A DNA stretch of 64,000 nt, taken from the NCBI GenBank assembly GCA_963752595.1, contig CAVVYZ010000013.1, forward strand, positions 96,001-160,000. The letters run 5' to 3'. Source of the DNA: an uncultured delta proteobacterium (GTDB lineage: Bacteria; Desulfobacterota; Desulfomonilia; UBA1062). The position numbers and the translations under genes were made by a program. This document shows positions 4,101 to 20,208 of the stretch, in pieces; the stretch's first letter is position 1; each line of letters begins with the position of its first letter. Below the pieces are notes generated by a model that was not told the origin of the DNA, ran no database searches, and saw only the letters and a program-made list of their open reading frames with translations.

Positions 4101-4631
4101 TCAAGCGCTTATGCCGGATATCCCGAAAAACGGTTCCGCACCGGAAGCAGTGATGGTCAAAAAGAACGGTGCTTTGTTGCGGGCAACTTCGGCTTCGACA
4201 AGTGCACGTTGCGCGGCCGGGTTATTCTTCAATCGTTCGTATTCAGCGGCATACAGACTGAAGTGTTCTGCAGCCCGCAGCAGGCTCGATTCCGCCGAGA
4301 TCTTCGCATAGCGTTGCTGCAATTCGGGAGTATCCTTGAATAGTTGTTCGATCCTGTCTTTATCAGGGTGGTCGTTGGCTACCCGCACATATCCCTGGGA
4401 ATCGTTAGTGAGGACAGGATCGGGCGGCACGCGGATGCCGGCATCATGAAATTTTTTCCTGACCTCTGCGGCAAAATCTGCCGTATCCTGGGCCAGTGAT
4501 TCGCGAGTGGGTATATCCAGCGGCGTAAGTTTTAAGCCCGCTTGTGCTGCTTGTGCATGAGACGAAGTGGCTGAGCGGGCGAATGTAATGGGCTTGTAAG
4601 CTGCCGGTGCCGTAATAGCAGTGACGTTCAT
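4101..4631 (-). CDS. Hypothetical protein
   Basis: RBS GGAGG before MNVTAITAP; helical protein-like composition. Confidence 0.65.
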   Translation of the reverse strand: MNVTAITAPAAYKPITFARSATSSHAQAAQAGLKLTPLDIPTRESLAQDTADFAAEVRKKFHDAGIRVPPDPVLTNDSQGYVRVANDHPDKDRIEQLFKDTPELQQRYAKISAESSLLRAAEHFSLYAAEYERLKNNPAAQRALVEAEVARNKAPFFLTITASGAEPFFGISGISA

Positions 4632-4814
4632 ACTTGGACCTCCTTCACTATATACCAATTATAAGCAAACACCATGCCCGCAATCCGGTTTCCGGATTTG
4701 CCCGAACGTATCAGTGGAAAAGCTCACCGGAATGGCTCTGCCGCGTCTGTAAGCCATCCGCTGGAGCTGGAGAGGGTTTTTAGAAAAAAATCTGTCCGCT
4801 TTTTCCTAAGAAAG

Positions 4815-5290
4815 CTATTTCGAAATTCCTTTGGCCACGATGCGCTGCAGATCAGCGTTTTCCCATGCGCGAATATTCTTCTCAATCCATGCCCTGCCGA
4901 TACCATTGGCAAACTGCGCCAGTGTTGCGGGATTGCCTTCTTCCTTATTCAGGATCATATAAGCGGCCTGCTCCCGATTACTCTGATCGATGGAGGTGTC
5001 ATCCGGCTTTTGGCAATCAAACACCACTGACTTCAACAGCTGGAGTTTATCATCAGGTGAAGCATTTTCCGCCTGTACCGGCTGGCCCATAACGAACTTT
5101 ACCACCTCTTTGGAATTATTTGTCTGGATCGCTTGTTTGACCGAGGTAATGGCCAATTGGGGTTGCACCCTGGTCCCAGCGGGCAGCTGCCCCGCCGGTA
5201 AGACCTTAGCCGCTTTGAATCAATCCGGAATAGAAAAGGCGCATGCACCGGAAAACATTAAAAACCTTTTAAAAACTTCCTGCGAATCAT
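4815..5290 (-). pseudogene. Possible degraded Tat-exported protein
   Basis: RBS AAGGAG then MIRRKFLK (twin-Arg-like), followed by a frameshift and an in-frame TGA before the 117-aa ORF 4815-5168. Confidence 0.35.
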
Positions 5291-5346
5291 CTTATTTCTC
5301 CTTTCTTCAAGGTTTATCAACAAAATGATAAAGTGACGATTATTGT

Positions 5347-6282
5347 TCAGACGGTCAACACCTTACATACGGCATCGATCTCCGTCTTGTACGTTCCGAC
5401 CAGCTTCTTTGCCTCGCTCTTGAGGTTTTCGATGTTCCCGTTCGTCGCGTTGTCCATGTCATCGGAAGCAACGGTTAGGCTTGTTTGAAGCCGGACGTAT
5501 TGTTTGCCGAGAAACAGGTTCATCTGGTAGTTTGATGCGTCTGCCAGGCCGTCAAACATGCAGCTCAAAAGGGGAGCAACCCAGCCTGCTTTGCCCCAGT
5601 CTTTGGCTTCCGCATAAGCAATCGGCCGGATCAATTCACCTGTCCCGAGCGATAAAACAAAGAAGTCGTTTTCGTCGGGAAAGATCCTTTTTGCTTCAGC
5701 GTATGCAGAAACAGACGGAGAGTTGATAAAAACGCCTCCGTCGACCAATGCCCTCGTCGCTCCGCCGACAGGGACGAGAGCCGGTTCAAAATACGTAGGG
5801 GCAGCAGACGTTGCCCGTGCTGCGTGCTTCATCTGCACCGAGCGGTACTCTTCCCGCCAGCTCTTGAAAAACAGCGGCTCGCGATTCTGGATATCGTAGC
5901 TGGTGATCAATGTTCTTGTTAAGCACGATCCCAGCGGCTCATCCCCGAAGTACTCATCCAGGACCTTCTCAATTCCGCTGTGGGAGTACGTCTCATCCGC
6001 CAGACCTGCTACCGACGACACGCCTTTCCACAGGGAACGCGAGAAGATCTCCTTCCCTCGCGACTGATAAATGTCGGCCAGATCCTTTGCAGAATACTGC
6101 GCCTTGCCCTTGCCGTTATCTTTGGAAAAGCCCAGCGCGAGTATCCCGCCGGTGGAAGTGCCGGCTATCAGGTCGAAGCTTTCCGCTGTCGGTCTCCCGG
6201 TCTTTTCTTCTATTTTCGAAAGAACAAGGGCAGGGATAAGACCACGGATACCACCTCCGTCAATACTAAGGATTTTCTTCAT
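5347..6282 (-). CDS. Patatin-like phospholipase
   Basis: DGGGIRG oxyanion loop, GTSTG nucleophile motif, catalytic DGG; RBS GGAGG. Confidence 0.95.
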   Translation of the reverse strand: MKKILSIDGGGIRGLIPALVLSKIEEKTGRPTAESFDLIAGTSTGGILALGFSKDNGKGKAQYSAKDLADIYQSRGKEIFSRSLWKGVSSVAGLADETYSHSGIEKVLDEYFGDEPLGSCLTRTLITSYDIQNREPLFFKSWREEYRSVQMKHAARATSAAPTYFEPALVPVGGATRALVDGGVFINSPSVSAYAEAKRIFPDENDFFVLSLGTGELIRPIAYAEAKDWGKAGWVAPLLSCMFDGLADASNYQMNLFLGKQYVRLQTSLTVASDDMDNATNGNIENLKSEAKKLVGTYKTEIDAVCKVLTV

Positions 6283-6436
6283 CTTACCTCCTGCGATTAA
6301 ATTTCAATAACGCGCATCAGCGGTCGTGACCGTGACGCAGACCGTCTTATTACAATTGTCCGGTCAGCCGTTTTAATCGTGGGCCGACCTCTATGGCATG
6401 AAACGCCATGTATGTTCCTTTAGCTTTATTCTAAGG

Positions 6437-6493
6437 GGTCAATGTGCAGATCAGTTGCGGCTGAAAGCCGTCCGGTGGATTAACGGGTTGGGT
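6437..6493 (-). mobile_element. attC site (degenerate)
   Basis: Same core as the other sites (gatcagt-gcggctgaaagccgtccggtggat). On the minus strand it reads ACCCAAC...ATTGACC, so the R' GTT is mutated. Confidence 0.7.
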
Positions 6494-6502
6494 TTTTTGC
6501 CG

Positions 6503-6823
6503 CTACTGTACTTCTGGACGATCTGTGCCGCATTGCCAACAAGTCGTGAATTGAGGGCCGAGTAATTCACGGCATTTTGGGCATTTCCACGAATGGCCTT
6601 TGATACCAGGTGAGCCTTCATCGTTAATGTATCTGGATGTTATTGATGCAGCTATCTCGAATTGGCTATCATCTAAAATCCATACCGAAGGATGACCGTC
6701 TGTTGTAGCTTGCCCTTTTAATAGAGATTCATTGCGAATTAAAGACAAGATACCTTCAGCCTCAAGAAGAGTTTTTACAAAGTATGCATCGCTTAATCTG
6801 TAAGCTGTAAAGACTTGCTTCAT
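6503..6823 (-). CDS. DUF2007-like protein with C-terminal zinc ribbon (cassette gene)
   Basis: AYFVKTLLEAEGI.IRNE N-terminus; WKCPKC...QFTTCWQCG. Confidence 0.85.
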   Translation of the reverse strand: MKQVFTAYRLSDAYFVKTLLEAEGILSLIRNESLLKGQATTDGHPSVWILDDSQFEIAASITSRYINDEGSPGIKGHSWKCPKCRELLGPQFTTCWQCGTDRPEVQ

Positions 6824-6876
6824 TCACATCTCCTGGAAATCCAGAGTCAGTCATGACCTTCGGTTGAAAGCCATAA

Positions 6877-7057
6877 TACACCCCCAAGAAAAGTTTTGGA
6901 ATTGGAGATGGACACGAATAGATTACAGAGTCTTATATTGCTAAAGAAGGGAACTGAGTTTCCATGTGAACTTCCCCAATTACCCCCCCTATGAAACTAT
7001 GCAAATGTGTTACCCATGTACCCAGAATATTCTGTTACCTATGTCCCCGTTCGCTCA
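6877..7057 (+). mobile_element. Probable IS481-family remnant (ends only, no transposase)
   Basis: Direct repeats tgttacccatgtaccc (7008-7023) and tgttacctatgtcccc (7033-7048), 25-bp period, ending ..CA at 7057; this resembles IS481 right ends. The left boundary is tentative. Confidence 0.5.
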
Positions 7058-7062
7058 ATGTG

Positions 7063-7383
7063 TTAATTATTGAAAACATCATAGATGGATTGCTTGAATT
7101 GCCCTTTCTCAACAAACTTATCAACAACTATGCGATAGAGATCCCAATTCCACTCGTTGATGCTAAATGGTTTTTTCCCATAACGCATGAAAAACAAAAA
7201 TTCCTTTAGTTCCTCTGCATAACTTGTGCTTCCCATCTGACGATTCCTCACCGCTCCTTTTATGCGGTAAGAAATACGTTCAACGGAATTCGCTTCTTCT
7301 TCTGCAACTTGGATAATCTCATGGTAATCTTTGTCTTTGATACGATCGATGAAATCAGAGAAACTGGATCTTCTGTTTGTCAT
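7063..7383 (-). CDS. Hypothetical protein (cassette gene)
   Basis: RBS GAGGAG; AT-rich ORF starting immediately after attC 7408-7464. Confidence 0.8.
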   Translation of the reverse strand: MTNRRSSFSDFIDRIKDKDYHEIIQVAEEEANSVERISYRIKGAVRNRQMGSTSYAEELKEFLFFMRYGKKPFSINEWNWDLYRIVVDKFVEKGQFKQSIYDVFNN

Positions 7384-7407
7384 AGCTCCTCTCTTTCAAA
7401 GGCAATG

Positions 7408-7464
7408 GTATAACGCCACGCGTCACCGGCGGCTTAAGCCGTCCGGTGGATGCGATGGTTAGGC
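7408..7464 (-). mobile_element. attC site
   Basis: Minus strand GCCTAAC...GTTATAC, 57-bp imperfect palindrome; the upstream gene's TAA stop lies inside R''. Confidence 0.9.
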
Positions 7465-7852
7465 TGCTCTATCCAAAAGCCTCAATGCATCTTTTTTTAC
7501 AGACAGCAAAGAGATCCCAGCTTTCTGGATCTGCTCAGCATTCCATGTATCCGGATCACGCCAAAATCTACTTTTATCATGCAATCTAAAGGCAAGTTTA
7601 CGATCAATTCTCATTACCAGGAATGAAGTATTAGACCATAATTCAGCCAATTCATTTTCTATTCTTCTATCTCGGTCTGCACCCTCAGCCCTTAGTCTAC
7701 AATATGTCTCCAGTTTTCTCCGCTGCTTCGACAACGACACGTAAAGTTTCAGCAGTCTTGCTGTTACGGGTAACTTTTTTTGCTTCAATATATGCCAAGA
7801 AAGCAGTAACAGCAGAAACTAATGATATCCAATTTGATATTTCATCACTCAT
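7459..7852 (-). CDS. Hypothetical membrane-anchored protein (cassette gene), 1-nt frameshift near 7711
   Basis: RBS GGAGG, then MSDEISNWISLVSAVTAFLAYIEAKK...EAAEKT; removing one G continues into ETYCRLRAEGADRDRRIENELAELW...KSRFWRDPDTW, with the stop inside attC. Confidence 0.7.
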
Positions 7853-7907
7853 AGATCCTCCAAGCACTCATTTGATTAAGAATTGAGATTTCAAATTATA
7901 TGTTAAA

Positions 7908-7961
7908 GCCTAACGTGCGGATCAGCGGTGGCTGTAAGCCGTCCGCTGGATTTGGTTGGGC
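7908..7961 (-). mobile_element. attC site
   Basis: Minus strand GCCCAAC...GTTAGGC, 54 bp; nearly identical to 10454-10510 apart from a 3-nt deletion. Confidence 0.88.
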
Positions 7962-7965
7962 TGTA

Positions 7966-9274
7966 TCATAATGTCCCAATATGTACAGAACTCGACATGA
8001 CTCCAGGAATCTTTGCGACAGCATCGACAATTAAATTAATCCTGTGGAAGTCCTCGACTATCAGTACTGCGACTAGGTCTACCGAGCCCAATGTACGGGT
8101 AACTTCTAATACTTCCCGGAAATGCTTTGAGTTCATTCTCGACATCTTCAAGGAATTTAGGGTGAGAGAGTGTAAGGTTCGCGTACACCTTAATCTTCCC
8201 CCCTCTTGGCGGTATAACTCCTTGCTGTGTAGTCTGCTCTTTTGACCACTTCTTATGAATTGTTTCAATTAGCTGATCCGTTGCACGGCCTACATTACCA
8301 TCGCGTAAATCGAGATATACAACGTCACGGAGAAGGGGTGGGATCTCAACATCATCCAGCAAGATTGGCAGTAGTATTGCTTGCCCCTGGCCTGAGATTT
8401 GCCAACTCATTGCTGCATTCAATTCTTTTTGAGCCCAAGCACTGCTTAGGGATTTGTTCGAAATAAAGAATGCAACAAAATCGGATGAATCTAGTCCATG
8501 GGCGATGTTTTGAATCAGACTATCGCCTGTCCTAATTTCTGCTTCATCAATCCATACTTTTATACCGCCTTGTATAAGCAGCTCAGCCACATTGCGGACA
8601 ATACCCTTGTCAGCATGAGAGTGACTGAGAAATACCGTTGGCTTTTGGTCAGCGTTTGCAGTAGCCGCAACTCTAATAGTACGGCGAATGGTCGACAAGA
8701 TAAGGTCGCGTGACAATCCAAGTTTTTCAGATTCGCCCACGAGTTCCTCTATATCAGACTGCTTAAGGCCAGAGTTGGAGTGGCTTTTCCCGAATTCCTC
8801 AATGGTCTGCATTGTACGCCCAAGGTCAGCAGCCACACGAACAGCCAAATCATGCCCATTTTTGAAGTATGCAACTGTGTGACGTTCCTGAAGAACACTT
8901 TTCCATCGGTCGAGTAGACGAATTTTTTCAGGATCGCGTTCTATGTTTCTTGGCAAAACCGGAGTGTTCTCATCAAGCATATAGACGAGACATGGCTTCC
9001 TTAGTCGAAATCCTTCCTCATATTCGGCTTCCGAGAAAGAGATGCTAAGCCCCGATACAAGACTTCCATAACGATGTCCAACTATCACAACGAGAATATC
9101 GCTCTTTCTTACCTCCGCTAAACAGGTCTCGATTGGCACATCTGGACGGGCACCAAAAAATTCCATTGAATCATGCTGCAACTGCAATTTCCGAACAGCA
9201 TCCAACACAGCCTCTCGTTCGTCCGCCAAGTCAGAAAACGTGCTGCATAGAAATACCATCAAGTTTCGTTTCAT
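7966..9274 (-). CDS. DUF4062-TIR-(Lrp/AsnC RAM-like) multidomain protein, 1-nt frameshift near 8116 (cassette gene)
   Basis: DUF4062: VFLCSTFSDLADER...CLAEVRKSDILVVIVGHRYGS...SEAEYEE. TIR: VFLSHSHADK...VWIDEAEIRTGDSL...SAWAQKEL. The tail continues in the 7966-8268 frame (see findings). Confidence 0.85.
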
Positions 9275-9293
9275 CTGATCGTTCCTGTTATAT

Positions 9294-9354
9294 GCCTAAC
9301 GCTAGGCATCAGCCGCGCGGCTATGCCGCGTCGGCCTGGATGCGCTGGTTAGGC
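9294..9354 (-). mobile_element. attC site
   Basis: GCCTAAC...GTTAGGC, 61-bp imperfect palindrome; contains the TAA stop of the 9349-10416 gene. Confidence 0.92.
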
Positions 9355-10416
9355 TTTTACTCGTCTGACTAAGGACCGAACCCATGACATAGCAGACTCA
9401 ATGGCCCAGTCAGTTTGAGGTTGTGTGAGCGTTGGCATTGGCTCTGATCCCGGGCCATGCCCAAGTGAGTTCCGAACCTTCCGAAAATAGTCTTTTAATA
9501 TCTCACCCTCCCACGGAGCGAGGAGGCTACCATTGTTCTTGCTCACTAGATTATCTATGTACGCGGCAGCGCCGGTTTCAGTTCCACGTGTCCAACCCTT
9601 TATGTCTGAAACGATTTTTATTGCGCTTTCAAGCGCCTTTGCTGCGAATATGGCTGGGTCTTTATCATTTGAATCTCGACGATCAAGCGCCTCCTTCATA
9701 TCGATGTCCACGTTCGCCCAAATCGGGTCAGCAACTAGCTCCCAAAAAGGCTTTGCGATGTTCTGCTCGATCGTCTGATCGTGGGAAACTTGAATAAAAC
9801 CGTTGTGATATGTCAAAGGTGCTCCGGCGCGGCGAAAGCGCTCGTTGAGTTCGGTAACTTGTTCACGAAACACGTTATTAATGGACGCATTCCAAGCTTT
9901 GGCTCCGTCCACTGCACTTCCCTGGACCCTGAAAGCTCTACTTGGAGTGAGATTGCGGAATGCCGCAACATCAAGTGTTTGGGGTGATTGTGCGTTAATT
10001 CTGGCGACTTCTTCCTCTCGTAAACGCATTGCGAGTTCGATGAAGCTGAGCCTATCTTTGATGTAACTGTCAGGATCTTGAAGTCCAAGGTGAGGTTTTG
10101 CTGTGACGAACTGCTCGCAAACATGGTCCCAGCCAAACCAACCTGAAATTGGGAACTCTTGCCCTAAGGCATTCTTTTGTGTGTATGAATAGTAGCGTTG
10201 AGCAAGCTCTTTGAGACCGAGTTCTCTAGCTAGCCTGTCGTGCAAACCCTTCCACTTAACTTTGTTTGATGCGTGTTCCTTGCCGTCAGAGTCATAGTAG
10301 GGGAATAGGTCCCTTGCGATAGCGATTGTTTGCGTTAAAAGACGCCCCTCGTGCTCTGTATAGGTGGACCAGATTGGGAACTTGAGATACCTATATGCAA
10401 ATATGTCTGTCAGCAT
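9349..10416 (-). CDS. AbiJ-like (NTD4-type) protein with C-terminal HEPN domain (cassette gene)
   Basis: N-terminus MLTDIFAYRY...LHDRLARELGLKEL; ELNERFRRAGAPLTYHNGFIQ; AAKALESAIKI; HEPN R-x4-H motif RNSLGH. Confidence 0.75.
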   Translation of the reverse strand: MLTDIFAYRYLKFPIWSTYTEHEGRLLTQTIAIARDLFPYYDSDGKEHASNKVKWKGLHDRLARELGLKELAQRYYSYTQKNALGQEFPISGWFGWDHVCEQFVTAKPHLGLQDPDSYIKDRLSFIELAMRLREEEVARINAQSPQTLDVAAFRNLTPSRAFRVQGSAVDGAKAWNASINNVFREQVTELNERFRRAGAPLTYHNGFIQVSHDQTIEQNIAKPFWELVADPIWANVDIDMKEALDRRDSNDKDPAIFAAKALESAIKIVSDIKGWTRGTETGAAAYIDNLVSKNNGSLLAPWEGEILKDYFRKVRNSLGHGPGSEPMPTLTQPQTDWAIESAMSWVRSLVRRVKA

Positions 10417-10453
10417 TTTTCGTCCTCTGCGAATATTCGATTTGTGTCCTTAA

Positions 10454-10510
10454 GCCTAACGTGCGGATCAGCGGCGGCTGAAAGCCGTCCGCTGGATTTG
10501 CTGGTTGGAT
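10454..10510 (-). mobile_element. attC site
   Basis: Minus strand ATCCAAC...GTTAGGC, 57 bp, with internal stem cagcgg.cggc tgaaa gccg.ccgctg. Confidence 0.92.
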
Positions 10511-10537
10511 TTTTTCATATACGAAATCACTTAACAA

Positions 10538-11263
10538 TTATTTATTTCTATTCTTCAGCTTTGCTTTGCCCTGCGGACCTTCTGGCCTAACTTCAATGTT
10601 TACCCACACAGCTGATCCTTCACCTTTTTCAATTTTGTGGGATTTTACAGCATCAAAACCTAATGCAAAAAGTTCGTGAACTAAAGCCTTTGATGCTTCT
10701 ATACTTTGTTTATCACCTGTACTTGCAATTGTAATTCCTGTTTCATTAGGTGATACTGAACCAAAAGGCGCACCAGATTGTGCTAAATTAATTTTCGATG
10801 CAGGTGAAAAAACAATCCATTTTGCAGACTGCAGGGCACTACCAAGTTCCCATGCTAAAGTTTCAGCTTCTTTATCGCCCGCACCATACCATATGCTGAC
10901 TGGCTGTCCTGAAAAAGATGCAAGTTTCGTGGTGATTAATTGTTGTTGTTCTTTCGATAACCGTCTCCAAGCGAGATCCTCTTCAAGTCTTATGCGTTCC
11001 AATCTTTCACTCTCTGCTTTTTCATTTGCTTCCGCTGCGCGTGCATCAGCATTAGAAACAGCAACTCTTAGCTCCGTAGATTGTTTTTCAAGAGTTGCAG
11101 TGCGTTCACGAGAGTCAGCGAGCTCCCGATTGAGATATTCCTCTTTAACATTTCCCATCCAAACAACCAATACGGTTGAAATGATGCCTATAACGAGACC
11201 AATAATTAATCCAACATTTGAGACGTCATATAACCATATTGCGGTCTTCAAAGGTGGCCACAT
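10538..11263 (-). CDS. Single-TM coiled-coil hypothetical protein (first cassette gene)
   Basis: RBS AAGGAG, MWPPLK..., TM segment GLIIGLVIGIISTVLVVW, coiled coil (ADARAAEANEKAESERLERIRLE), then an alpha/beta domain. Confidence 0.8.
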   Translation of the reverse strand: MWPPLKTAIWLYDVSNVGLIIGLVIGIISTVLVVWMGNVKEEYLNRELADSRERTATLEKQSTELRVAVSNADARAAEANEKAESERLERIRLEEDLAWRRLSKEQQQLITTKLASFSGQPVSIWYGAGDKEAETLAWELGSALQSAKWIVFSPASKINLAQSGAPFGSVSPNETGITIASTGDKQSIEASKALVHELFALGFDAVKSHKIEKGEGSAVWVNIEVRPEGPQGKAKLKNRNK

Positions 11264-11574
11264 ATTTTTTCTCCTTGGTTCTGTCAAGTAACACTGATGA
11301 CAATCCAACGATTACTATACTGCATATTTGCAGCCCAATATGATAATAGGGGTAGTTTTACGACTATATTGGGAAAAACTTATGGACTTGATCAAGTTCT
11401 ATTCCTCCGGAAAATGAGTGCACTCCGTACATGCTGGGTGAGCGTTATTTTTGATGGTAATCTCCTCTTCATTGCATGATTCATTCGATCCTGATGTGGT
11501 GGGTCCGGGATGTATTGCATTATGATCTTGTTGCTGAATGTTAACAGAGGGTTAAGGCAAAGTAAAGGGAGGAT

Positions 11575-11608
11575 AATAAAAGAAGAGCCCGGAGAAAGGT
11601 CCGGGCTC
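11575..11608 (-). terminator. Rho-independent terminator of the 576-aa gene
   Basis: gagcccgga-6 nt-tccgggctc stem followed by a U-rich tract on the minus strand. Confidence 0.75.
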
Positions 11609-11649
11609 ATGCCATAGAATTATCTATCCGGAAAATCCGGTATAATTCT

Positions 11650-13380
11650 TCAGTTCCTTGTTTTGGATTGTGCCATCATCGTTTCCGTGATCGGGTGCTC
11701 TTCCGGCAGATGATCCGGCAGGGATTTCTCCACGAGCAGCGTGTCGTTGTTCTCTATCGGGAGCACGTTGAGCGTGTCGGCAAAGGATATCCAGTGGGGC
11801 AGGTTGAGCTTCTTGCCCTCCGGGTGGTTCCAGGTGCGGTACCAGAAGAGGTCGTTGACCGATTTCCTCTTCTCCATTGCCTGGCGCTCCGCGATCATGG
11901 CGTCCTGCTCGCGCTTGGCGCAGATCGAGATGACCGCCTGCATCTTGTCGCCCGGCTTGATGGCAGGGGCGAGGACGTCGGCAAATCCGACCGCGGTGCT
12001 CGTTACAAGCTGCTCTTCGCTGTCGAGGAGCTCGGTGGAATGGATCGGGCCGGTCATGCAGAAGGCGCCGTATTTCAGGTCGTCGCCCTCGGGGATGTCG
12101 GTCGTCCCGTCGAGGTGTATGGAGTTCAGGCCGCACTGGATCGCTTCGCCCACGGCATGCTCCACGACATCGATCGCCAGTTTGTACTTTTTCACCATTG
12201 CCATGTCGATGGCGAAGAATACCACCCTGTGGCCGTCCTCCCTGGGTTTGAGAACCTTCTTACCCATTTCGACGATGATCTTCGCATACTGCTTGTAGGT
12301 CTCGAAATCGCAGGCGCTGAACCTGGGGTCTTTCTTGTTTATTTCAAACGCATCGAGCACCTCGATGAATGCCTTGTCCATGCCTCTCTTGGCGCGGTTT
12401 CTCATGAGAGAAAGGATCAGCTTGCCCTTGGGCGTGGTGCCGTCCATGATGTGGAGCTTGACTGCCTCGCGGACGCCCAGCCTGCTGAAGGTGTAGTTGC
12501 AGCTGCCCACGAAGTTGTCGATGACCCTGTCCGGAACCGTCAGGCTGAAATCGGCATTCCGGCGCTCGCTCTTGCGCTCGATGAGCTTGGCGCCTGCAAC
12601 GGCCATCATCTGGGGGTCGAAGGATGCCCTGTCCTCGATCTGCTTGAATCCGAGCTGGACGATGGTCACGATCTTTCCGCCCTGGTCCATGCCCGGGAGC
12701 ATGACGAGGTTTTTCAGCATCTTGTAGCCCTCGCTGTTCAGGCCGTTCGCGAGCTCCTCGGACAGAGAGTGCCTGATCACGTTCATCCCGATGTTTCCGC
12801 CGAGCACTGCGCCGATCCCATTGATGAGGTTGTGCTCGAAGGTGCCCATGTCGAGGTTCTCCAGGCTGCGGACGCTGGGAGGGATGGGCTTCCGGCGTAA
12901 GCCGAGAATGTCCATGAAGTCTCCCTTGTAGCCCGTGTTTATCAAAACCACCGTTGCAAAGGCGTTTTCTGCAAACCTCTCGCATGCCTTGACCACCTTC
13001 ATTTTCGAGAAGGCTTCTTTGCATTCGGTGTTGAAGGTCCAGTCGAAGTACATGCCCTGCCAATGCTGGGAATAGGTTGCGCACGAGGCCTTCAGCCCGC
13101 ATGCCAGCACCTGGCCGAGCCTGTATTTGTTCGGCGTCTCCTTGATGTTGAACGGTGCGAAGTCCTTGCCCTTATAGAAGCTCGAGCGCCAGATGTGGCG
13201 GATGGCCTGGTTCTGCTTCTCCGTGATGGAGGTGGGGCAGATCAGGTAGGGTATCTCGCAGGTGCCGGGGTGGCGGGCGGGATACCATTGCGACCGGTGT
13301 ATCGCAGCGTTGCCCTCCCTGGCGATCTTCCTTCCGTCATTTTTCCCGTATACTCCGCTTTCGCCCTGTTTTTTAACCAT
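11650..13380 (-). CDS. Hypothetical 576-aa cytoplasmic protein, family not recognised
   Basis: Long ORF with host-like GC3 bias, strong RBS AAGGAGG and its own terminator. Confidence 0.88.
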   Translation of the reverse strand: MVKKQGESGVYGKNDGRKIAREGNAAIHRSQWYPARHPGTCEIPYLICPTSITEKQNQAIRHIWRSSFYKGKDFAPFNIKETPNKYRLGQVLACGLKASCATYSQHWQGMYFDWTFNTECKEAFSKMKVVKACERFAENAFATVVLINTGYKGDFMDILGLRRKPIPPSVRSLENLDMGTFEHNLINGIGAVLGGNIGMNVIRHSLSEELANGLNSEGYKMLKNLVMLPGMDQGGKIVTIVQLGFKQIEDRASFDPQMMAVAGAKLIERKSERRNADFSLTVPDRVIDNFVGSCNYTFSRLGVREAVKLHIMDGTTPKGKLILSLMRNRAKRGMDKAFIEVLDAFEINKKDPRFSACDFETYKQYAKIIVEMGKKVLKPREDGHRVVFFAIDMAMVKKYKLAIDVVEHAVGEAIQCGLNSIHLDGTTDIPEGDDLKYGAFCMTGPIHSTELLDSEEQLVTSTAVGFADVLAPAIKPGDKMQAVISICAKREQDAMIAERQAMEKRKSVNDLFWYRTWNHPEGKKLNLPHWISFADTLNVLPIENNDTLLVEKSLPDHLPEEHPITETMMAQSKTRN

Positions 13381-15275: not shown

Positions 15276-15377
15276 TTTTCATTGTACAGCCGGAAGGCAA
15301 TGCTTTATTGTATTGATATCGAGTGTCTGGACATAATCATATACTGATACGACAAAGGGTTTTAAAAGGGGGTTTTG

Positions 15378-16269
15378 ATGCATATTCGTAAGGTCCTGCT
15401 GCACGTTCTGCCCCTGGTGGTTTCGGTCAGCCTTACGGGAGGATGTGCCGCGAAGATCGCCAGAATGTCGGTCGACGGCATGAAGCCCATCATGGTGGAG
15501 ATGCGGGGCGCCACGAACAAGAACCGCGACTCGCAGCTGGTCATGGATGCGATGCCGGCAATGCTCATCCAGATGGACGGCTTCATAGGGGTATCGCCGG
15601 AAAACCGGTATCTCCTCACGAGCGCGGCAGAGGCCAACATGGGGTATGCATTTTTCGCCGTGGAAGACAAGAACAAGGAACGCGCGAAGTTCCTCTATCT
15701 CAAGGCACGGGACTATGCATTGAGAAACCTCATGCTGAACAAGACCTTCAAGCAGGGCTTCGCGCAGGATGATATCGAGGTGTTTACCCGCGCCCTGAAG
15801 ACCGTCCACAAGAGGGACGTCGCGCCGCTGTTTATAGCGACGAACAGCTGGATGTCGTGGATCAACCTCGCGCATGCCGACAACCCGTCGGCCCTGAAAG
15901 ACCTTCCCAAGGTCGAAGCCATGATGGACCGCATCCTTGCAATCGATGATACATACTATTACGGCGGCGTCCATGCGCTGCTCGGTACGTACTACGTGCC
16001 CGGCCCGAGATGTTCGGCGGCCGGCCTGAAGAGGCGAAAGAGCAGTTTCAGGAGGCCTTCGAGATATCGGAGTCCAAGTACCTTCTGTGGCAGTTTCTCT
16101 ATGCAAGGTATTATGCGGTCCAGACCAAGGACAGGGGGCTTTTGTCGCCACCTTGAACAAGATCGTCTCCTCGCCGCCGGATATCCTGCCGGAAGATGCG
16201 TTCGCGAACGCGGCGGTAAAGAAGAAGGCGGCGGAACTGCTGCTTCACGTCGACGACTATTTCCAATAA
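15378..16269 (+). CDS. TRAP-T TatT-family lipoprotein (frameshifted)
   Basis: Lipobox LTGG-C; LPKVEAMMDRILAIDDTYYYGGVHALLGTYY; across frameshifts it continues MFGG..EEAKEQFQEAFEIS..KYLLWQFLYARYYAVQ...ANAAVKKKAAELLLHVDDYF. Confidence 0.85.
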
Positions 16270-16331
16270 ACCATGGCCGTATTCGCGATTCCGTCCTTCA
16301 GTGAATATGGCCGCAGCATGCACAGGAAGCC

Positions 16332-17294
16332 ATGAGACAGTACATCCTCAGGCGGATTCTCTACTCGTTTCTCATCCTTTTCTTCATATCGATCTTCATC
16401 TTTACGCTGGGAAGGGTGCTTCCCGGAGACCCGGTGCAGGCCGTGCTCATGACTTCCCGGATGGGCCCGGTGGATGCTGAGGTCATGGAGGATCTCAAAG
16501 CCCAGTTCGGCCTGGATAAGCCTCTGCCCGTGCAGTACCTCGTCTGGGCCGCGAACTTCATCCGGGGAGACTGGGGCATTTCCATAGCGAGCGGCGAGGA
16601 GGTGCTGCGCCATGTTCATGCACCGGCTGCCCATCACCCTGGAGCTTTTTTAGGCTCGGTGCTTCTGGGTCGTGCATCATCGGGTTCCCGTTCGGCATCA
16701 TCTCTGCGCTCAGGCGCAATTCACGGCTCGACGTCTCGCTGACGATCGGTGCCATCATCGGCATTTCCATCCCGGTGTTCTGGGAGGGGATCGTCATGAT
16801 CTATCTCTTTGCCGTGATGATTCACATCTTTCCGCCGTCGGGCTATGTGCCCTTTTCCGAGAGCATGAGCGGCAACCTCCTCTCCGTTGCCATGCCCACC
16901 TTCATCATGGGCACCCAGGGGGCAGGGCTCCTCTGCAGGTTTGTACGGTCGAGCCTGCTGGAGGTTCTGGGCCAGGACTATATCCGGACGGCATATGCCA
17001 AGGGCCTGCACAGGACAGGCGTGATCCTCCGGCATGCGGTGAAGCCTGCAATGATACCCGTGGTCACGATCGCCGGCCTTGCCTGGGGCTATGTGGTGGC
17101 CGGGTCTTTTCATCGTGGAGTACATGTTCGCCATCCCGGGCCTGGGGCGCATGGGCGTAAACGCGATCTTCGCAAACGATTTCCCGGTCATCCAGGCTAC
17201 CCTGGTCATGGTTGCGCTCAATATCCTGACCGTGAACCTCATGGTCGATCTCCTGTACGGATACATCGACCCGAGGGTGAGGATGCAACAATGA
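16332..17294 (+). CDS. dppB: Dpp/Opp-type ABC permease B (frameshifted)
   Basis: YILRRILYS...LPGDPV...GLDKPLPVQY; RSSLLEVLGQDYIRTAYAKGL; DLLYGYIDPRVR. Confidence 0.88.
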
Positions 17295-18200
17295 AGCCGG
17301 ATAGAGATTCTTCGACCGGGATGACGTGCCTGCTCCGCCTCCGACCCCCTCACAAGCTGTATTCCGTGCCCTGATACGACACAAGATAGCGCTCATAGGC
17401 ATGGCCATCATGCTGTCTTCTCATGCTTGTAGCGGTATTCGCGCCGCTCATCCTGCCCCGTACGACCCGAACGAGCAGGACCTCTACCATGTCCTGGAAG
17501 GCCCATCCCGGCAGCACCTGCTCGGTACTGACGACGTGGGCCGGGACCTGCTGTCGCGGGTCATCTACGGTTCGCGGGTAACCCTGATGATGGGCGCCGT
17601 CTCCACCCTGTTCTCGGGCCTTATCGGCGTGTTGCTCGGCCTGGTAGCGGGCTACAAGGGCGGGATCATCGATATGGTCATCATGCGCATCACCGACACC
17701 TTCATGTGCATGCCTGCCCTGGTCCTGATCCTTGCCATCATGGCCGCCATGGGCCCGGGCATGGAGAGTGTCATCCTCTCCATCACGATCCTTGCGTGGA
17801 CCGCGTTCGCGCGCATCGTGCGGGGCCAGGTGATGCTGGTGCGCGAGCTCCCCTATGTGGAGGCGGCCCATGCCATGGGCGCCTCGGGTTTCAGGATCAT
17901 ATTCCGGCACCTGCTGCCCAATGTCATGGCCCCGATCATCGTTACCACCACCATCGCGCTGGGCGGAAACATCATGCTGGAGAGCGCGGTGTCCTTCCTG
18001 GGCTAGGCGTCCAGCCGCCCACGTCGAGCTGGGGAAACGAGCTGCGGATCGGCTATTCCTACCTGGAGATCGTGCCGCTGTTTTCCATTGCGCCGGGATT
18101 GATGATAACCCTGGCGGTCCTGGCCTTCAACTTCATGGGCGACGGCCTCAGGGATGCCCTCGACCCGCGGCTCCGCGGAAATGACAGGATGATGAAATAA
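17291..18200 (+). CDS. dppC: Dpp/Opp-type ABC permease C (frameshifted)
   Basis: HLLGTDDVGRDLLSRVIYGSR; YVEAAHAMGAS..RIIFRHLLPN; FNFMGDGLRDALDPR. Confidence 0.88.
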
Positions 18201-18210
18201 GGTAAAAGAT

Positions 18211-19179
18211 ATGCTGCTCGATGTGCAGAAACCTGACCACGCATTTCCTTACCGATAACGGCATCGTCAAGGCCGTGGACGATGTCTCCTACGGTCTGGA
18301 TGAAGGAGAGACGTAGGCCATCGTGGGCGAGAGCGGCTGCGGCAAGACCGTGAGTGCCCTTTCGCTCCTGGGCTCATCCCGGACCCGCCGGGCAGGATCG
18401 TCAAGGGCGAGGTCCTGTTCGAGGGCAGGGACCTCCTGAAGACTGAGCGAAGACGAGATCTGCCGCATCCGGGGCAACCGGATCGCCATGATCTTCCAGG
18501 AACCCATGACCTCGCTCAACCCGGTGCTGACCATCGGAAGCCAGGTCATGGAGCCTCTGATGCTCCACAAGGGCATGAACAGGAAGGAGGCGCTCCGGGA
18601 ATGCATCGAGCTGCTGAAGATGGTGCGGATCCCCGATGCCGCGAGCCAGGGTCAACGCCTTTCCCCACCAGTTCAGCGGCGGCATGCGGCAGCGGGCCAT
18701 GATCTCCATGGGGCTGGCCTGCAACCCCAGGCTCATCATTGCCGATGAGCCCACCACGGCCCTGGACGTGACCATCCAGGCCGAGCTCCTGGAGCTCATG
18801 AAAGGATCTCACCCGGGACCACGGGACCGCCCTGATCATCATCACCCACAACCTGGGCATCGTGGCCCGGTATGCGGACAGGGTCATGTCATGTATGCCG
18901 GAAAGATCATCGAAAAGGCCGTGACCAGGGACCTCTACCGCGACTCCGCTGCACCCGTACACGGTCGGGCTCATGGAATCCGTGCCCCGGCTGGACCAGG
19001 ACATCAGGCAGAAGCTCATGCCCATCGAAGGTCAGCCCCCGGACCTCTGCCAGGCTGCCCCGGGCTGCGCCTTCCACCCGCGGTGCAGGCATGCGCTTGA
19101 CCGGTGCAGGGAAGAGGCCCCTGTCTCTGAAGGAAGATCGCCGAAAACCATGAGGCGGCGTGCTGGACTCGATGCATGA
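18211..19179 (+). CDS. dppD: Dpp/Opp-type ABC ATPase D (multiple frameshifts; end approximate)
   Basis: GESGCGKT Walker [47 protein letters not shown]. Confidence 0.85.
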
Positions 19180-20208
19180 CATGAACAGAGTGATGTCCTC
19201 ATCCGGGTCAAGACCTGAAAAAGCATTTCCCCATCTATCAGGGAGTGATCTTCAAGAAAAAGATCGGCGATCTCAAGGCCGTCGACGGCGTGAGCTTCAC
19301 ATCCACAGGGGGAGACCCTCGGGCTCGTGGGCGAGAGCGGCTGCGGCAAGACCACCACCGGCAGGACCATCCTGCAGCTCGAGCGACCGACCTGCGGAGA
19401 GGTACTGTTCGAGGGCACGGACATCACCGGGCTCGGGAAGTATGAGCCAGGAAGCTCAGGAAGCACATGCAGATCATCTACCAGGACCCCTTCGGTTCCC
19501 TGGACCCCCGGATGACCGTCGGCGACATCGTGGGCGAGCCCTTGATGATCCATCAACCTGGCAAGGGGAAGAGGCGAATACGCCGACCGGGTCGGAAGCC
19601 TGCTGGAGACGTGGGCCTGAACCCGGCCATGGCCGTCGAGGTATCCCCACGAGTTCAGCGGCGGTCAGCGGCAGCGCATCGGCATAGCCCGGGCGCTGGC
19701 GGTCAAGCCGGACTTCATCGTCTGCGACGAGCCGGTATCCGCCCTGGATGTGTCGATCCAGGCCCAGATCATCAACCTCCTGGAAGACCTGCAGGAAAGG
19801 TTCAGCCTCACCTACCTCTTCATCGCCCACGACCTGCCGTGGTCAGGCACATCAGCGACCGGATCGCCGTGATGTACCTGGGCGAGATCGTCGAGATCGC
19901 GGACCGGCGGCGACCTGTACCATAACCCGGCGGCACCCCTACACCCGGGCGCTGCTCTCGGCCGTGCCCATCCCGGACCCGGAAGTCGAGTACGACACGG
20001 GAGCACTGCATGATACAGGGGCGAGGTGCCGAGCCTGCTCAATATCCCGGACGCGTGCAGGTTCCATCCCCGCTGCCCGCTGGCGCAAACGATCTGCACG
20101 GGAGACCAAGCCCGTGCTGAAAGCACTGGATACAAGCGGGCACATGGTCGCCTGCCATTTCGGGATGATAAGACGCTGAAACGTTTCAAGGAGGTCATGA
20201 GGAACTGA
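19176..20208 (+). CDS. dppF: Dpp/Opp-type ABC ATPase F (multiple frameshifts; start approximate)
   Basis: [64 protein letters not shown]. Confidence 0.85.

Follow-up and report, generated by a model that had tools for sequence, protein, structure and literature searches.

The subject of the present work is an integron cassette array in a 64,000-nucleotide stretch of DNA (the window) from an uncultured delta proteobacterium, corresponding to positions 96001-160000 of the 249-kb contig C13 of a genome (G000) which comprises 4.1 Mb in 31 contigs and is 84% complete. Taken as a whole, the array is probably an integron which has kept its attI recombination site after losing its integrase gene intI, which is loaded in trans by the integrase (IntI) encoded on another contig, C20, and whose cassettes are predicted to be expressed through a leader carrying a motif that resembles the operon polarity suppressor (ops) element. 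The comparison extended over 52 genomes of the family, among which G004 is the sister genome and the others are relatives.

The array, its attI site and the probable loss of intI

The five palindromes of 54-61 bp on which an earlier note had based the recognition of the array were all confirmed (Table 1). The plus strand of the window is the attC bottom strand, and the genes ahead of all five sites lie on the minus strand. Compared with 300 dinucleotide shuffles each, the four intact sites have folding z-scores of -4.2, -3.6, -2.8 and -3.3, and the site at 6437 has one of -1.0. The description of four sites with intact ends and a degenerate one at 6437 is accurate for the crossover, which is GTT in four of the five and ATT at 6437, but not for the whole consensus, as the R' of the 7408 site, GTTATAC, is not strictly RRRY; the two stop codons said to lie inside R'' do so, at 9349-9351 and 7459-7461. 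In an alignment of 26 sites from G000 and its relatives, with 441 cells of named R-box and L-box structure, 92.3% of the cells are paired, compared to 83.6% when shuffled and 28.6-38.8% in slid controls. Two-sided changes occupy 40 cells, against 17.8 when shuffled, and six pairs show such changes, a number attained in 58 of 500 shuffles. The extrahelical T on the bottom strand is invariant (26 of 26 sites), and the extrahelical base of the L box is G in all five sites of the window.

A profile trained on 22 attC sites of the genome and applied at a threshold of E<=0.03 produces 31 matches genome-wide, all of them in six loci (5 on C13, 14 on C20, 4 on C16, 4 on C26, 3 on C2 and 1 on C5), and the sites are therefore not genome-wide repeats. 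A lack of extrahelical bases and an occurrence throughout the genome had been named as grounds for abandoning the identification; since the bases are present and the sites are clustered, it stands. The suggestion of a lineage-specific attC type applies to the family, all arrays of the genome and its relatives having this type in common, but the type is not peculiar to the array in the window. To the left, the array is extended by half an attC site at 6305 and by the decayed site at 4714-4779. Weak, lone attC-like sites also occur outside arrays in G000, at C13:233897-233961 and C9:279004-279047.

The array begins at what is, by homology to attI sites adjacent to intI, a genuine attI. Its alignment with the attI on C20 scores 60, compared to a maximum of 31 among 3000 random windows, and its GTT crossover coincides exactly with the beginning of cassette 1. 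A profile of nine attI sites from other genomes, two of which were first found using the window as query, matches G000 at E<1e-6 in three places, C20, C16 and the window (E=1.4e-7 in the window), each heading an array. A second attI type heads the array on C2, beside an internally deleted intI-B, and the array on C26, which brings the arrays headed by an attI to five in a genome with a single intact intI. The window site, of type C, is 77% identical to a type-C attI in G005 which adjoins the 5' end of a truncated intI. Because the window attI is homologous to the attI of intact integrons, the array is likely a former complete integron from which intI has since been deleted. Intermediate stages of such a loss are found in the lineage, namely the deleted intI-B on C2, the truncated intI in G005 and an 85-nt intI stub in G004; the stub lies at the same locus as the array in the window (the flank is 85% identical over 3 kb), together with a different attI type and other cassettes, although only 1.3 kb of the G004 array is present on the contig. 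In four other relatives (G011, G003 at a contig end, G006 and G007) the stretch downstream of the flanking 576-aa gene yielded no attC, and a metagenome scan for type-C attI found two loci, neither of which is that of the window.

Four further observations concern attI sites. In G004 two loci (G004:C18 and G004:C13) carry a type-B attI next to a short intI stub where sister genomes have other attI types, and attI modules appear, from such comparisons, to be swapped among motif-bearing loci. A palindrome beside type-A attI is kept in relatives and altered in the type-C site of the window (11330-11360); it is a possible regulator site or accessory IntI site. A ThsB-like TIR cassette lies first behind a type-C attI with truncated intI (L059:945-1550, G005:C84), and at L107:466-2716 three successive cassettes behind a type-C attI contain near-identical open reading frames (ORFs), which we take to be restriction-endonuclease-like.

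The earlier observation that no tyrosine recombinase lies in the window can be extended to the whole of C13, which has no match to TIGR02249 (IntI) or PF00589. A genome-wide search finds one intact intI, on C20. Its product has 324 aa, scores 458 bits against TIGR02249 and contains RLTE, DGKG, HTFRH, LGH and IYTH segments, and the gene adjoins an array of 14 attC sites, whose type is that of the window sites. The proposal that the array is mobilised by an IntI encoded elsewhere thus gains a candidate enzyme, but the window attI differs in type from that on C20. The array is a CALIN (cluster of attC sites lacking an integron-integrase), as had been proposed, by the IntegronFinder definition, which requires a minimum of two attC sites without an intI nearby, but it is not a bare cluster: intI is missing beside it, while attI, recognised by homology, is retained at its head along with an upstream leader.

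Loading in trans is best seen at a different locus. G002, G005, G006, G007 and G020 share one intI-less locus, beside a glutamine-amidotransferase gene, in which 210-238 of the 238-239 nt from attI to the leader motif are identical and the identity ends exactly at the AAC| crossover. The first cassettes differ in all five genomes, the arrays share no cassette but only an insertion sequence (IS) by tblastx, and an intI match occurs elsewhere in every one of the five (in G002 a partial one, at a contig end). This pattern supports the loading of cassettes in trans after intI was lost in the lineage, although it concerns another locus and is no proof for the window's own attI, whose type differs from that on C20. 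It is rather likely that the window attI still takes cassettes in trans, with the C20 IntI continuing to load and shuffle the array. The ISs in the C20 array form a separate observation: several interrupt it, two of them inserted inside attC sites.

According to Cury et al. 2016 (PMC4889954), loss of intI is one of the proposed origins of CALINs, and half of them are found in genomes having an intI; mobilisation in trans is stated both there and in bioRxiv 10.1101/2025.06.18.660453. Considered alone, the array in the window is an ordinary CALIN, and a retained attI with turnover in trans fits a proposed CALIN origin. It is unlike the usual CALIN in that attI and the predicted upstream promoter and leader have been kept, with five attI platforms to one intact integrase, and cassettes could therefore still be inserted and expressed. 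The sedentary integrons of Xanthomonas, as described in bioRxiv 10.1101/2025.06.18.660453, are similar in that intI is inactivated by deletions, CALINs lie at conserved loci and trans mobilisation is stated, but in the present family several distinct attI and IntI types appear to be exchanged at the same loci (type C in G000 and type B in G004 at the window locus), always beside the leader motif.

The leader motif

The motif, which in the family reads CACC-N6-GG-ACGGAGT-C-T-G on the transcribed strand, lies 110 bp upstream of attI and appears on the plus strand of the window as ACTCCGT-N8-GGTG. It matches once in the 64-kb window (0.01 expected) and seven times in the genome (control 2): four copies are at attI loci (C2, C13, C20 and C26), one is inside an ORF (C6), and the other two (C5 and C7) head polysaccharide operons of 13-16 kb with glycosyltransferases, a sugar transferase and flippases, so that two of the three exact copies not associated with integrons precede long operons of this kind. 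A longer form of the motif is present in 34 of the 52 family genomes (control 1). The exact core lies behind 25 of 31 intI matches (26 genomes), at a distance of 15-171 nt and in a single orientation, while the remainder of the same loci, 187,897 nt, contains no match. The six intI matches without it consist of four in genus g12 (one of whose test windows is still inside intI), one with a flank of 165 nt and one in G020. Its carriers span 11 of 14 IntI clusters (clustered at 75% identity, with pairwise identity down to 40%), and in two IntI clades it accompanies the integrase in other genera and is absent from genus g12, which is motif-free genome-wide. Because the same clades have the motif only outside g12, it tracks the host rather than the integrase, pointing to a host signal. 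In another family, 24 of 69 genomes match a shorter pattern with 1-3 copies, which is near the control level. A structured RNA on the plus strand was considered for the motif and rejected, there being three invariant pairs and no covariation.

Promoters were sought with sigma70 weights. A promoter-like score of at least 11 on the strand facing the motif is found at 14 of 41 loci, compared to 1, 0 and 0 for the other combinations of strand and side, and in 21 of 25 intI-linked loci the best promoter is 83-107 nt upstream of the motif; in the window no candidate above 4.5 bits lies between motif and attI. With the promoter candidate on its far side pointing at it, the motif would be part of the leader of a transcript that runs antisense through intI towards the cassettes. 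Read-through into the array would be prevented by the terminator-like hairpin that closes the upstream 576-aa gene. Known cassette promoters, according to PMC8876359, can likewise be convergent with intI, but they lie within the 5' part of intI or within attI, whereas the promoter predicted here is placed past the 3' end of intI, ahead of a conserved leader signal. No description of a promoter and an ops-like signal behind intI was found among the papers that searches of open-licence PubMed Central (PMC) and bioRxiv listed.

The comparison with ops involves both the motif and a possible binding protein. At positions that were not selected for, 24 distinct core-selected copies have G-11 in 21 cases, G-10 in 20, Y-1 in 24 and G+1 in 23, and G-11, G-10, Y-1 and G+1 are the letters of the elemental pause consensus, which the family copies thus match. 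The closing pair of the motif hairpin covaries, being G-C in 35, C-G in 7 and unpaired in 6 of 48 copies, which come from kin and are not independent. According to published accounts, ops matches the consensus pause (PMC7819879), its non-template hairpin has the pairs C3:G8 and G4:A7 with T6 flipped out and ends in T11 G12 (bioRxiv 10.1101/324400), and RfaH counter-silences xenogenes that are silenced by Rho and NusG (PMC7593976). Measured against these accounts of the RfaH-ops system, the motif is alike in its leader position (here by prediction) as a non-template 5' element of long polysaccharide or xenogeneic operons, in its pause-consensus bases, in a C-G-G-A-G core (C:G and G.A hairpin) and in the 3' register AGnnTG; RfaH is a stand-alone paralog acting in trans on xenogenes, and G000 likewise encodes, on C9 (at 93099), a NusG paralog that stands alone and matches the RfaH model best. 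It is unlike ops in its extra conserved upstream CACC and in its loop, GGA, which has no T6. According to PMC11685472, the UpxY-opsX system of Bacteroides is also multipartite, combining a non-template hairpin with duplex DNA upstream, from about -16 to -36, and the CACC of the motif, at -21 to -18, falls where UpxY contacts upstream DNA; UpxY genes lie inside their operons, however, while the family paralog is stand-alone and scores 62 bits against a UpxY cut-off of 100. Integron arrays were not found as RfaH-ops targets in the literature searched (open-licence PMC and bioRxiv). On this evidence, identification of the motif as an ops-like site falls a little short of probable.

The mechanism that would connect these elements is as follows. 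In the window, transcription of the cassettes would begin at a promoter some 230 bp upstream of attI and pass through the ops-like motif. In intact integrons of the family the cassette promoter would lie beyond the 3' end of intI, RNA polymerase would pause at the motif, and the NusG paralog would bind the non-template hairpin (S-AC-GGA-GT-S) together with the upstream CACC. The polymerase so modified would resist Rho across about 1.2 kb of untranslated antisense intI and the foreign AT-rich cassettes. Deletion of intI, as proposed for the window, would leave promoter, motif and attI as a minimal platform for expression and capture. This account of expression, from the promoter beyond intI through pausing and paralog loading to Rho resistance, is predicted from sequence and is tentative, nearly but not quite probable. 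A broader version, in which family integrons are wired into an RfaH-type regulon, unrelated integrases repeatedly settle behind a T6-less ops, and promoter-ops-attI docking stations are loaded by one integrase, is possible and is put forward with still less confidence.

Cassette genes and their setting

The genes ahead of the attC sites had been described as AT-rich, co-oriented single genes. All lie on the minus strand, but with 37-49% GC compared to 53% in the genome they are only moderately AT-rich, and the interval 6494-7407 contains two ORFs and an IS-end-like stretch. The further claim of a defence cassette bank is only partly borne out: published work documents phage defence genes among integron cassettes, and three of the eight genes from attI to the decayed 4714 site have defence-associated domains, but none reaches the cut-off of a curated defence family. 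For named anti-phage systems, PADLOC and NCBIfam gave no array gene above a curated cut-off, only partial TIR and patatin matches, and the enrichment in defence genes is modest. In cassette 2, an RNSLGH segment fits the HEPN-type RxxxxH motif. The patatin, found in 1 of the 52 family genomes at E<=1e-40, has no cyclase (CD-NTase) beside it, the only SMODS match of the genome being on C5 with its own 2TM effector. Cassette 1 has no Pfam, PADLOC, NCBIfam or PHROG match, its Atlas matches being hypothetical clusters only, and cassette 5a has no usable match in the same four collections and nothing in Atlas. A relationship of the fragment at 4815-5168 to the TIR gene on C26 was rejected for lack of similarity.

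Cassettes 3 and 4 each have one frame break relative to single-ORF homologs, those of cassette 3 being ORFs of 435 aa with PF01037 at 64-84% identity. Since 3 of 23 housekeeping genes compared with G004 also switch frame, the two breaks may be assembly indels, and assembly error is as likely as decay. The DUF4062-TIR core occurs with interchangeable C-terminal domains among 506 homologs, Lrp/AsnC in the closest and PF02954 in others. Elsewhere in the window, several frame switches break ABC-transporter genes at 15375-20000, which suggests local assembly indels, and the 576-aa protein at 11650-13380 is present in 14 of 41 relatives and has no Pfam, NCBIfam, PADLOC or PHROG match. The window has no Rfam match at gathering scores, and the interval 4600-11700 has none at E<=5.

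Among 38 ORFs of the other arrays, PADLOC finds a TIR gene (C26), a cyclase-2TM pair and an HNH-WYL gene (C5) and one methyltransferase (C20); the 18 ORFs tested in the C20 array have no defence-like match beyond toxin-antitoxin genes and that methyltransferase. The C5 genes (C5:102983-106503) resemble cassettes, with a cyclic-oligonucleotide-based anti-phage signalling system (CBASS; SMODS-AGS_C cyclase and SLATT_6 effector) and the HNH-WYL gene directly after a single attC, and no attI was recognised at this locus. An RVT_1 reverse transcriptase ORF inside the C2 array (L030:9411-10730) probably belongs to a group II intron.

Table 1. Features of the array and its flanks, in window coordinates
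Feature	Position	Strand	Basis
Terminator-like hairpin (intrinsic type) closing the upstream 576-aa gene	11585..11608	-	terminator-like hairpin call
Candidate sigma70-like promoter facing the array, extended -10 type, predicted	11538..11566	-	8.8 bits
Ops-like leader motif with exact core 11422-11440; the cassette strand reads CACC-N8-ACGGAGT-N-Y-R	11419..11442	-	pattern match
attI (type C), R box GTTGGAT 11309-11303, crossover G|TT at 11309/11308	11303..11385	-	homology
Cassette 1: 241-aa membrane-anchored coiled-coil protein	10538..11263	-	ORF
attC	10454..10510	-	pairing, fold and alignment evidence
Cassette 2: AbiJ_NTD4 + Abi_C protein, defence-like	9349..10416	-	PF18863 + PF14355; 1131 homologs
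attC, with stop codon of cassette 2 in R''	9294..9354	-	fold and sequence
Cassette 3: DUF4062-TIR-Lrp/AsnC fusion, frame broken near 8117 in the assembly	7966..9274	-	Pfam
attC	7908..7961	-	fold and sequence
Cassette 4: 130-aa-type hypothetical, phrog_12412-like, frame broken near 7714 in the assembly	7459..7852	-	homologs
attC, with stop codon of cassette 4 in R''	7408..7464	-	fold and sequence
Cassette 5a: 106-aa ORF	7063..7383	-	ORF
Tandem TGTTACC repeat, IS-end-like	7008..7049	.	sequence; one related copy on C26
Cassette 5b: DUF2007-like, C-terminal zinc ribbon	6503..6823	-	PF09413 at 25.0 bits, slightly short of the cut-off of 25.7
attC with degenerate R' (ATT for GTT)	6437..6493	-	sequence
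attC left half (R' and L' only), right half unrecognisable	6305..6345	-	attC profile search and sequence
Patatin phospholipase, CBASS-effector-like, probably an old cassette	5347..6282	-	NF041079 191 bits (cut-off 200); PADLOC effector hidden Markov models
Gene fragment, probable decayed cassette	4815..5168	-	weak NB-ARC, 0.0038
Decayed attC-like site	4714..4779	-	nhmmer E=0.04

Alternative explanations and significance

A number of observations weigh against an attI-retaining integron loaded from C20 and expressed through an ops-like leader. The genomes compared are kin, and counts across them are therefore not independent; the copy of G020 is identical to that of G002, although G020 is classed in another genus. 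On the side of loading, the attI sites of the window and of C20 belong to different types, and a multi-copy IS (C20:131410-132824) lies between the C20 attI and intI, 60 bp ahead of the beginning of the gene, which may leave IntI poorly expressed or cross-recognition inefficient. On the side of expression, the window copy of the motif does not follow the family consensus at -10 or at +1 and ranks only 9th in the genome (E=1.9) under a profile from other genomes; the window promoter candidate, 97 nt upstream of the motif, has a modest score and is missed by a stricter scan; two orphan attI loci (G000 C16 and G004 C15) have no motif; and at several loci the motif stands ahead of short genes of an ordinary kind, such as those for aquaporin-like and membrane proteins. 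The flipped-out T6 of ops is lacking, and canonical ops matches 44 of the 52 family genomes, with controls equal or higher. The NusG paralog scores 95.5 bits against RfaH TIGR01955, below the cut-off of 144.5, it occurs in almost all of the 52 genomes, motif-free genera among them, and it shows no obvious residue split; its co-occurrence with the motif was discarded as support, a nearly universal paralog being uninformative. Finally, attC hairpins are reported in PMC8876359 not to be terminators. The idea that antitermination is needed to pass them was accordingly dropped, which leaves Rho-type polarity as the only remaining need for antitermination.

Several of these points bear on an alternative in which the array is the same and the motif is an ordinary transcription-factor operator or a leader-RNA element, controlling envelope or stress genes, that was co-opted by the integron or merely neighbours it. 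The bipartite, quasi-palindromic form of the motif with its variable spacer of 7-8 nt would suit an operator, its targets include a response-regulator/PP2C-STAS pair as well as short genes, and the absence of T6 and a paralog distribution that does not track the motif also speak for this explanation. Against it stand a position 40-120 nt downstream of the promoter, without overlap, the pause-consensus bases at unselected positions, the strict orientation, and the lack of covarying RNA structure and of an Rfam match; the alternative as a whole is somewhat unlikely. It is quite unlikely that the array is a dead relic, in which intI was lost long ago, the C20 integrase (IntI-A) does not use the window attI and the cassettes are decaying in place. 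The two broken frames, the degenerate 6437 site, the half site at 6305 and the fragments to the left would all be expected of a relic, as would the mismatch of attI types and the IS upstream of the only intact intI, but the four proximal attC sites and the attI core are intact, assembly indels may account for the frame breaks, other cassettes occupy the window locus in the sister genome, and orphan attI sites in relatives turn over.

An alternative concerned with content rather than with mechanism, that of a dedicated anti-phage cassette bank, is unlikely. AbiJ_NTD4-Abi_C, DUF4062-TIR-AsnC and CBASS-like patatin genes stand together in an array of a kind that published work documents as a source of defence genes, and the complete C20 array is nearly devoid of such matches, but defence-like genes are a minority in the window, none passing a curated cut-off, and TIR, CBASS and HNH-WYL cassettes are also found on C26 and C5, the platform itself selecting no function. 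Seeding of the array at a secondary (attG) site, or its separation from another integron by rearrangement, is very improbable: both are proposed for CALINs in general in the relevant section of PMC4889954, but a genuine attI homolog with its crossover at the first cassette, and the motif usual behind intI, flank the array, and this attI homology largely refutes such an origin.

The attI-retaining platform provides direct sequence evidence on the origin and continued activity of CALINs, with attI kept, intI lost and the first cassette turning over. IntegronFinder, according to the part of PMC4889954 that discusses it, cannot search for attI sites of unknown type, and the motif would, if its interpretation is correct, find orphan attI sites that current tools cannot search for. 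The leader suggests an undescribed answer to the integron expression problem (promoterless foreign genes, distance and Rho), namely processive antitermination by a NusG paralog. Integron arrays, defence cassettes included, would then join the RfaH-like targets, the motif would be the recruitment site for an uncharacterised paralog, and the docking stations of this genome would together make up a distributed integron, in which several first positions are strongly expressed.

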